Part shown: positions 17,062-59,357 of the stretch, piece after piece
Numbering within the stretch: the stretch's first letter is position 1
How the letters are laid out: each line of letters starts with the position of its first letter
Source: Escherichia coli
GTDB taxonomy: Bacteria; Pseudomonadota; Gammaproteobacteria; Enterobacterales; Enterobacteriaceae
Assembly (NCBI RefSeq): GCF_003334355.1
Contig: NZ_QOWP01000007.1
DNA: 64,000 bases
Direction: 5' to 3' (one strand)
The notes under the pieces: model-generated
What the model saw: only the letters and a program-made list of their open reading frames with translations
What the model was told of the DNA's origin: nothing
Database searches by the model: none
Made by a program: the position numbers and the translations under genes

Positions 17062-20633
<3,572 letters not shown>

Positions 20634-30520: not shown

Positions 30521-33121
<2,601 letters not shown>

Positions 33122-58414: not shown

Positions 58415-59230
58415 GTGGCGCGGATAAACCGTATTTCGATCACGCTCTGTGCTTTACTTTTTACCACCCTGCCTTTAACGCCTATGGCCCATGCTTCAAA
58501 GCAAGCCAGGGAGAGTTCTGCTACCACTCATATCACCAAAAAAGCAGATAAAAAGAAAAGCACGGCAACCACCAAAAAGACCCAGAAAACAGCGAAAAAA
58601 GCCGCCAGTAAAAGTACGACCAAAAGCAAAACCGCTTCTTCCGTTAAAAAATCTTCCATTACCGCTTCTAAAAACGCCAAAACTCGCAGCAAACACGCCG
58701 TCAATAAAACGGCCTCAGCCAGCTTTACCGAAAAGTGTACCAAACGTAAGGGCTATAAATCGCATTGTGTGAAAGTCAAAAATGCCGCGTCAGGAACTCT
58801 TGCCGACGCGCACAAAGCGAAGGTGCAAAAAGCTACGAAAGTGGCAATGAATAAACTGATGCAGCAAATTGGTAAGCCATATCGTTGGGGTGGCAGCTCA
58901 CCGCGTACCGGTTTTGATTGCAGCGGCCTGGTTTATTACGCTTATAAAGATTTGGTGAAAATTCGTATTCCGCGTACGGCGAATGAAATGTATCACCTGC
59001 GTGATGCAGCGCCAATCGAACGTAGTGAACTGAAAAACGGCGACCTGGTCTTTTTCCGTACTCAGGGACGCGGCACAGCCGATCATGTCGGCGTGTATGT
59101 CGGCAACGGCAAATTTATTCAGTCACCGCGCACAGGTCAGGAAATTCAAATCACTTCTCTCAGTGAAGACTACTGGCAGCGCCACTATGTTGGCGCTCGT
59201 CGGGTAATGACCCCAAAAACACTTCGCTAA
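58415..59230 (+). CDS. mepH: NlpC/P60-family peptidoglycan DD-endopeptidase MepH (YdhO)
   Basis: ORF track 271 aa; signal peptide, Lys/Ser/Thr-rich linker, and a C-terminal NlpC/P60 domain with catalytic Cys in GFDCSGLV. Confidence 0.93.
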   Translation: MARINRISITLCALLFTTLPLTPMAHASKQARESSATTHITKKADKKKSTATTKKTQKTAKKAASKSTTKSKTASSVKKSSITASKNAKTRSKHAVNKTASASFTEKCTKRKGYKSHCVKVKNAASGTLADAHKAKVQKATKVAMNKLMQQIGKPYRWGGSSPRTGFDCSGLVYYAYKDLVKIRIPRTANEMYHLRDAAPIERSELKNGDLVFFRTQGRGTADHVGVYVGNGKFIQSPRTGQEIQITSLSEDYWQRHYVGARRVMTPKTLR

Positions 59231-59233
59231 AAC

Positions 59234-59270
59234 TTTACCCTGTTGTTACGGCAACAGGGTAAGTTCATCT
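59234..59270 (+). terminator. putative rho-independent terminator after mepH
   Basis: Hairpin ttaccctgttg-ttacg-gcaacagggtaa followed by gttcatcttttgt. Confidence 0.55.
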
Positions 59271-59357
59271 TTTGTCTCACCTTTTAATTTGCTACCCTAT
59301 CCATACGCACAATAAGGCTATTGTACGTATGCAAATTAATAATAAAGGAGAGTAGCA

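Follow-up and report, generated by a model that had tools for sequence, protein, structure and literature searches.

The mepH locus

The window, i.e. the whole stretch of 64,000 nucleotides of Escherichia coli DNA that we analyzed, contains an open reading frame (ORF; 58415..59230, plus strand) whose product opens MARINRISITLCALLFTTLPLTPMAHASKQ and includes the string quoted in an earlier note on this DNA, KKADKKKSTATTKKTQKTAKKAASKSTTKSKTASS. The DNA of this gene is 100% identical to RefSeq E. coli chromosomes in which it is annotated as 'peptidoglycan DD-endopeptidase MepH', and a match was found in 5426 of the 5426 complete E. coli genomes, which confirms the name MepH given to it in the earlier note. 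Its neighbors in the window are lhr, grxD and sodB, and the grxD-mepH-sodB synteny was also observed in another E. coli strain, Salmonella, Citrobacter and Enterobacter. On the basis of the RefSeq identity, the shared synteny, a Pfam NLPC_P60 match and sequence and fold matches in PDB (see below), we consider the assignment of this ORF to E. coli mepH secure. It is the same gene as that of the NlpC/P60 DD-endopeptidase MepH (YdhO) in E. coli K-12, with identical DNA, the same neighbors and the same 271-aa product. Downstream of it, a pattern scan detected a terminator-like hairpin with a 13-pair stem followed by TTCATCTTTT.

The gene is known, and the feature discussed here, a low-complexity tail on a known protein, is of an ordinary kind. 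MepH is redundantly essential with MepS and MepM, the three being the 'space-maker' endopeptidases that allow the E. coli cell wall to grow. To our knowledge, proteolysis involving Prc, NlpI and BipP is the only means described so far by which MepH activity is positioned or limited. In purified form, MepH cuts 4-3 cross-links, and 3-3 cross-links weakly (10.1101/2021.02.12.430937).

Table 1. Features of the mepH region, with positions in the 64-kb window
Feature	Position	Strand	Remarks
mepH (ydhO) CDS	58415..59230	+	GTG start, 271 aa plus stop; ORF list and RefSeq identity
Signal peptide	58415..58495	+	Residues 1-27, MARINR / ISITLCALLFTTLPL / TPMAHA; read from sequence
Alternative (+1) frame ORF	58491..58772	+	93 aa, ATG start; ORF list; compositional artefact
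Polycationic low-complexity tail, predicted disordered	58496..58720	+	Residues 28-102; composition, entropy, AlphaFold2
12-nt (QKAS) indel site	58582..58588	+	Window has the short 271-aa allele; alignments
A6 homopolymer inside the tail	58646..58651	+	Some isolates have A7 here, a frameshift allele
Basic CX8C element, predicted beta-hairpin	58721..58783	+	Residues 103-123, Cys108 and Cys117; conservation, AlphaFold2
Helix alpha-1 (predicted)	58799..58870	+	Residues 129-152, leads into the catalytic domain; AlphaFold2
NlpC/P60 catalytic domain	58871..59203	+	Residues 153-263; Pfam PF00877
Terminator-like hairpin and T-tract	59234..59273	+	After the mepH stop codon; pattern scan, consensus match only

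Signal peptide and mature N-terminus

In the MepH signal peptide, a positively charged n-region and a hydrophobic core precede a standard signal peptidase I site, A25-H26-A27|S28 (AHA|SK); the peptide is 63-100% identical in orthologs. On inspection of the sequence, a lipobox ([LVI][ASTVI][GAS]C) was absent from its end; its sole Cys (C12) follows I-T-L, so that Leu occupies -1, and lies inside the h-region, and the c-region ends in AHA|S. MepH is probably cleaved after A27. Because of the predicted signal peptidase I site and the absence of a lipobox, mature MepH should be a soluble periplasmic protein whose N-terminus is formed by the Lys-rich segment, as a free tail. The earlier note had described this segment as a linker. 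This label does not fit, since the predicted cleavage at AHA|SK would leave the N-terminal end free.

Composition of the Lys-rich tail

The interval discussed in the earlier note (58490..58790) corresponds to MepH residues 26-126. Residues 28-102 contain 26% Lys, and the remainder is mostly Ser, Thr and Ala. Counted over residues 28-105, the proportions are 25.6% K, 19.2% S, 19.2% T and 16.7% A, which together make up 81% of the tail, and 22 Lys and Arg residues against two Asp and Glu give a net charge of +20. The pI of the tail is 11.2, and only four of the 76 residues at positions 28-103 are hydrophobic (I40, V77, I82 and V96). Shannon entropy, calculated in 20-aa windows, is 2.0-2.3 bits at residues 36-85, compared with 3.4-3.8 bits in the catalytic domain.

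We also compared MepH with other frames of the 64-kb window, using all 72 stop-to-stop open frames of at least 150 aa. The MepH frame has the lowest 40-aa entropy among them (2.26 bits; the median is 3.33), and in net charge over any 60 aa it shares second place, with a maximum of +19. Thus, with the lowest entropy and a near-top charge, the composition of the tail is not a chance fluctuation. The highest 60-aa net charge in the window (+24) belongs to an Arg-rich open frame. Neither TRF nor a repeat finder detected tandem or direct DNA repeats in the tail region, and the spacing of Lys residues showed no clear periodicity. A repeat array was therefore ruled out as the source of the low complexity, and the tail is a segment of biased composition.

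These values agree with the description of the segment as highly basic and of low complexity in the earlier note. However, its length was overestimated. About 125 residues (28-152) lie between the signal peptide and the NLPC_P60 domain, and of the approximately 100 residues that had been assigned to the low-complexity segment, about 75 (28-102) are truly of this type, whereas residues 103-123 correspond to a conserved predicted hairpin.

Predicted disorder of the tail

AlphaFold2 was run with two alignments. With 48 sequences, the tail had pLDDT below 50 and no secondary structure; since the catalytic domain was also modelled weakly in this run (pLDDT 50-86), the prediction was repeated with 123 sequences, which yielded the same elements at higher confidence. 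In the second run, residues 1-100 had no secondary structure and pLDDT of 49-62, whereas the catalytic domain (residues 131-271) reached 94-98. Low pLDDT is only a proxy for disorder, and in this sense residues 28-102 are predicted to be intrinsically disordered, as had been suggested for the segment as a whole. The Uversky charge-hydropathy plot did not discriminate, since the catalytic domain, too, is placed marginally on its 'disordered' side; the tail lies far from the boundary. PDB sequence searches returned no structure that covers residues 28-126, and no biophysical data on disorder of these residues were found in the literature searched.

A conserved hairpin, a MepS-like helix and the catalytic domain

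Residues 103-123 (SFTEKCTKRKGYKSHCVKVKN) are conserved across Enterobacteriaceae and share the motif TEKCTxRKGxKxxCVK. For the Cys108/Cys117 pair, exactly two Cys residues were present in nearly all Enterobacteriaceae orthologs. In the 123-sequence model, strands are predicted at residues 103-109 and 117-123 with pLDDT of 72-80, and the hairpin was also seen in the 48-sequence run. A disulfide between Cys108 and Cys117 probably closes this hairpin. A folded element is therefore predicted in the segment that the earlier note took to be disordered, but for residues 103-123 only.

The hairpin is followed by a helix predicted at residues 129-149/152, over which pLDDT rises from 70 (residues 121-130) to 95-98 (residues 131-150). 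Within it, H133, A144, L148 and M149 are invariant or nearly so among 48 orthologs. The catalytic domain matches Pfam NLPC_P60 (PF00877, MEROPS C40) with an E-value of 2.3e-36, covering model positions 1-105 of 105. In the alignment, the catalytic Cys and His of MepS correspond to Cys169 (DCSG, 58919-58921) and His224 (DHVG) of MepH, and the third catalytic position is Gln236 in MepH and His in MepS; Cys169, His224 and Gln236 are all invariant in 48 orthologs. PDB sequence searches with MepH detected MepS/Spr and other NlpC/P60 hydrolases. The model is consistent with a papain-like alpha+beta fold, as Foldseek searches against PDB found MepS, Acd24020, LytE, RipA and others, with target TM-scores of 0.75-0.90 and a probability of 1.00 for NlpC/P60 matches. 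No peptidoglycan-binding domain (LysM, SPOR, SH3b, PG_binding or OmpA-like) was detected, a Pfam scan at E <= 0.001 having returned NLPC_P60 only, and matches in NCBIfam were restricted to NlpC/P60 families.

The best Foldseek matches of the MepH model were MepS chains in NlpI complexes (8xup and 8xud), with 140-146 aligned columns, and phmmer placed MepH residue 145 opposite MepS residue 45. Based on these matches and this register, the predicted MepH helix 129-152 appears to be the counterpart of the extended alpha-1 of MepS. MepS (Spr), a paralog, has the same catalytic fold and about 30-35% identity to MepH, both proteins have a disordered region (predicted in MepH) before alpha-1, and both are substrates of Prc/NlpI. 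However, MepS is a lipoprotein with a disordered region of 37 residues and hydrophobic NlpI determinants (PMC11211486), whereas MepH has no lipobox, a 75-residue tail with a charge of +20 and the extra CX8C hairpin.

This likeness raises the question of whether the Lys-rich tail is a docking element for NlpI or a degron for Prc, which would parallel the disordered N-terminus of MepS. Prc degrades MepH, partly via NlpI and modulated by BipP (PMC8996183; PMC11789061). In MepS, disordered residues 1-37 bind NlpI in a disorder-to-order transition in which the N-terminus folds into the extended alpha-1 helix (PMC11211486), and it was from such complexes that the best structural matches of the MepH model came. 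However, binding of MepS needs hydrophobic residues L24 and F31 and the segment that extends alpha-1 (PMC11211486), and according to the phmmer register and the predicted helix, the MepH counterpart of this segment is located at residues ~124-152, i.e., downstream of the Lys-rich part. A conserved hydrophobic segment N-terminal of alpha-1, as used by MepS, is not found in residues 28-102, whose only hydrophobic residues are the four listed above and which lack a conserved motif. In addition, Prc recognises C-termini. Much of MepH proteolysis is also independent of NlpI (PMC11789061). Because the MepS-equivalent segment is at 124-152 and the tail has no conserved hydrophobic motif, we rank docking by the tail below the electrostatic tethering proposed later in this work, and regard it as unlikely.

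Autoinhibitory N-terminal modules are known in peptidoglycan endopeptidases. Another conceivable role is that catalysis in MepH is controlled intramolecularly by the tail or by the 103-123 hairpin, which would occlude or position the active site in the manner of RipA and ShyA-type modules. The conservation of the hairpin and of helix 129-152, directly before the catalytic domain, is in line with such a role. On the other hand, the Lys-rich part has no confidently predicted structure, and purified MepH (in a construct whose boundaries were not found) is active on sacculi (10.1101/2021.02.12.430937). We consider intramolecular regulation very unlikely.

The alternative-frame ORF

A 93-codon ORF with an ATG start is open in the +1 frame, and there are two long ORFs on the minus strand. 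These could be taken to mean that the region has a second function at the nucleotide level, either as an overlapping gene (58491..58772) or as a structured or regulatory RNA. However, the DNA of the tail core is 45% A and 11% T, which makes stop codons rare, and the +1 ORF is thus a by-product of composition. Shuffling of codon order produced an open +1 frame at least as long (93 codons or more) in 51% of cases, and by the same test the minus-strand frames were unexceptional. Moreover, the +1 frame is interrupted by stops in Salmonella and C. koseri, no Rfam match was found in the region, and there are no repeats. The shuffles and the ortholog stops are in agreement with the earlier note, which had dismissed this ORF as spurious, and a nucleotide-level function appears extremely improbable. 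Gene callers use the start of the +1 ORF only in frameshifted alleles (P0030; see below). We also considered ribosome sliding on poly-A. Such sliding needs roughly 11 or more A, and it was discarded, as the longest A-runs are only 6 nt.

Variation within E. coli

Length variants of E. coli MepH all map to residues 56-142, most of them inside the tail and a few reaching residue 142. The major one is a 275-aa allele, which has four additional residues (QKAS) in the tail. A junction-specific query detected it in 1844 of the 5426 complete genomes, which corresponds to a 66:34 split between short and long alleles, and an evenly spaced sample of 60 genomes contained 39 short, 20 long and one partial sequence. 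The long allele has two copies of CCAGAAA at a distance of 12 nt. As E. albertii and Citrobacter carry the long form, the 271-aa allele of the window represents a 12-nt deletion between the CCAGAAA direct repeats. In-frame deletions of 10-61 residues in the tail region were also detected as rare E. coli alleles (1-2 sequences each). The existence of these natural alleles indicates that a full-length tail is not strictly required for a called ORF.

A second type of variation is frameshifts in homopolymers. The A7 allele was present in Logan short-read assemblies (L001-L004) and absent from the 5426 complete genomes, in a search with a valid positive control. In A7 isolates, gene callers start at the +1-frame ATG and report a 246-aa 'exported hydrolase' without a signal peptide (P0030). 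A double-frameshift allele (P0013) has a stretch of 50 residues in the +1 frame that is still basic. We rejected it as a real variant, because the same NCTC assembly has fragmented lhr and grxD genes; it is most likely a homopolymer assembly error.

Evolution of the tail across genera

We compared approximately 100 orthologs from Citrobacter, Salmonella, Enterobacter, Kosakonia, Leclercia and other genera. Identity to E. coli MepH was 85-95% in the catalytic domain, 55-80% in the 106-145 region and 26-55% in the tail. No conserved motif was found within the Lys-rich part. Tails of near-full-length orthologs are ~65-90 aa long and have a Lys fraction of 0.15-0.28 and a net charge of +15 to +23. 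Among the close orthologs examined, none had an acidic or neutral tail. More distant full-length relatives, chosen as representatives at 50% clustering, have a signal peptide followed by a basic low-complexity stretch of 100-200 residues, the helix and the domain; the net charge of this stretch is +19 to +38, and its sequence cannot be aligned to the MepH tail. In one distant relative, the basic stretch has (AAKKP/S) repeats. In a survey based on crude regular-expression heuristics, the N-terminal regions of relatives with a lipobox were short and near-neutral (median 36 aa, net +2), whereas long basic ones were found in the closest MepH-like relatives.

Selection therefore appears to act on bulk properties of the tail (length, positive charge and few hydrophobic residues) and not on its sequence, since length and charge persist while the sequence diverges. 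However, the charge could in part have been conserved through the mutational inertia that comes with a sequence rich in A and poor in T, and not by selection.

These data also bear on a simpler explanation, according to which the tail is a passive, largely neutral low-complexity insertion that is tolerated as harmless, drifts by replication slippage and point mutation and adds nothing specific to the function of MepH. The low identity of the tail relative to the catalytic domain would be expected under this model, as would the four-residue indel at 34% frequency in E. coli, the rare in-frame deletions and the homopolymer frameshift alleles. In addition, no phenotype or mention of the tail was found in the MepH literature searched in full text. 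However, drift alone should yield acidic or neutral tails, which were not seen among close orthologs, and no near-full-length Enterobacteriaceae ortholog examined had lost either the length or the strong positive charge. A basic stretch even recurs in relatives that are too distant to be aligned in this part. A neutral insertion is, in our view, unlikely.

A proposed electrostatic tether

We propose that MepH's N-terminal region has two parts, and that the tail serves as a non-specific electrostatic tether to anionic envelope material; we give this proposal about an even chance of being correct. Cleavage of the signal peptide at AHA|SK would free the N-terminal end of a disordered tail with a charge of +20. 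The tail might then hold soluble MepH on free carboxylates of peptidoglycan and/or on head groups of anionic phospholipids, and this would raise the local concentration of substrate for the enzyme. In the proposed architecture, the tail (28-102) would be followed by the Cys108/Cys117 hairpin (103-123), the MepS-like alpha-1 helix (129-152) and then the NlpC/P60 domain. MepM has a LysM domain and MepS a lipid anchor; the tail would stand in for these in MepH, which is without either module.

Several known systems resemble this arrangement in part. Polycationic regions rich in K, A, S and T are found in proteins that bind nucleic acids, such as histone H1-like tails and the Lys repeats of topoisomerase I (PMC6821194). 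By analogy, the composition of the MepH tail suggests non-specific electrostatic binding of polyanions. Unlike these proteins, however, MepH is exported, so DNA or RNA would not be expected as ligands, and its tail has no repeat unit. Its polyanion partners are likely to be peptidoglycan or lipids.

A further parallel is provided by LysC of Clostridium intestinale and the endolysin of Thermus phage Ts2631, which are peptidoglycan hydrolases with a basic unstructured N-terminal extension. Without its extension, LysC retained less than 10% of activity in zymograms (PMC7404271), and the Ts2631 extension is described as serving peptidoglycan binding in the account given there (PMC7404271, its reference 15). 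However, these extensions have about 20-23 residues, are Arg- or Lys-rich, are able to adopt an amphipathic helix and work from the cell exterior, whereas the MepH tail has ~75 residues, is Ser/Thr/Ala-rich and nearly devoid of hydrophobic residues, and would be located in the cell's own periplasm.

It is also possible, and we suggest this more tentatively, as well short of an even chance, that the tail is a charge-selected targeting module that sets where and how long MepH acts on the sacculus, while the hairpin would be a separate docking or redox-sensitive element. With both, the regulatory logic of MepH would differ from that of MepS (a lipid anchor and a disordered region that binds NlpI) and of MepM (a LysM domain). 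The module could operate, for instance, by attaching to anionic lipids or peptidoglycan carboxylates in a manner sensitive to salt or pH.

Implications

A practical gain of this analysis is the corrected anatomy of the MepH N-terminal region, in which the tail, the CX8C hairpin and the MepS-like helix can be told apart, the helix being outside the Lys-rich part. Annotators should also be aware that the A-rich mepH tail yields frameshift and mis-start artefacts. If the tail does tether MepH, this would account for the ability of a soluble hydrolase that has neither anchor nor binding domain to locate its substrate, and deletion of the tail or neutralisation of its charge would provide a handle for separating the roles of the three enzymes. 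If, in addition, the tail sets where and how long MepH acts, this could explain why E. coli retains three 'redundant' endopeptidases.

Variation of mepH among genomes

The short mepH allele, which lacks QKAS in the encoded tail, is the form in the window and in K-12. Among the 5426 complete E. coli genomes searched, 1844 have the long allele (275 aa). The deletion falls between CCAGAAA direct repeats. Because E. albertii and Citrobacter also carry the long form, this form looks ancestral.

A frameshift allele, in which the A6 homopolymer is extended to A7, was seen in several Logan short-read assemblies (L001-L004) and in none of the 5426 complete genomes. It cuts the true mepH frame short, and in these alleles gene callers pick the alternative-frame ATG at 58491, yielding a called protein (P0030) without a signal peptide.

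Damaged mepH genes were rare among complete genomes; examples are strain ST2747 (L006, NZ_CP007394.1), in which the gene is annotated as a pseudogene and its N-terminus is missing, and strain TUM2805 (H10, NZ_CP128950.1), in which only ~19% of the mepH query region is left. In GCA_900448615.1 (L005), two compensating homopolymer indels within mepH place 50 residues in the +1 frame, and this segment is still basic. However, lhr and grxD are fragmented in L005 as well, and the double-indel gene is therefore most likely an assembly error, not a real allele. In one E. coli genome, searches of ecoli_genomes matched the mepH region twice, with the additional copy on a plasmid-labelled record.

In the Salmonella ortholog (P0056; L007 1501-1533), an 11-residue upstream extension, MNRLPLTEDCS, precedes the conserved start (V)ARINKI. 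This extension is probably the product of a mis-called start codon.

Features of mepH and Arg-rich open frames of the window
Feature	Window position	Strand	Remarks
QKAS 12-nt indel, mepH tail	58582-58588, indel site after 58581		Common polymorphism
A6 homopolymer, A6 -> A7 mepH frameshift allele	58646-58651		Loci L001-L004
Conserved basic CX8C motif TEKCTxRKGxKxxCVK	58721-58783		Residues 103-123; predicted beta-hairpin
Gln236, third catalytic-triad position of MepH	59120-59122		
Arg-rich open frame	18162-18698	+	Net charge +24 per 60 aa
Arg-rich open frame	32628-33107	+	Net charge +19 per 60 aa

Other biased open frames

The second-lowest-entropy protein stretch of the window (40 residues, sequence not shown) lies in a 688-aa open frame at 31055-33118 (+), and is charged and rich in Ala, Glu, Arg and Lys. 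The two Arg-rich frames have a very high net charge and seem to be artefacts of reading GC-rich genes off frame.

Conserved elements of MepH

The third catalytic position of MepH, Gln236, is invariant, whereas the paralogous endopeptidase MepS has His at this position. The CX8C motif was not found in more distant MepH-like proteins, and the literature searched gave no description of it. Its hairpin was predicted with pLDDT of 72-80, and the element may be disulfide-bonded in MepH.
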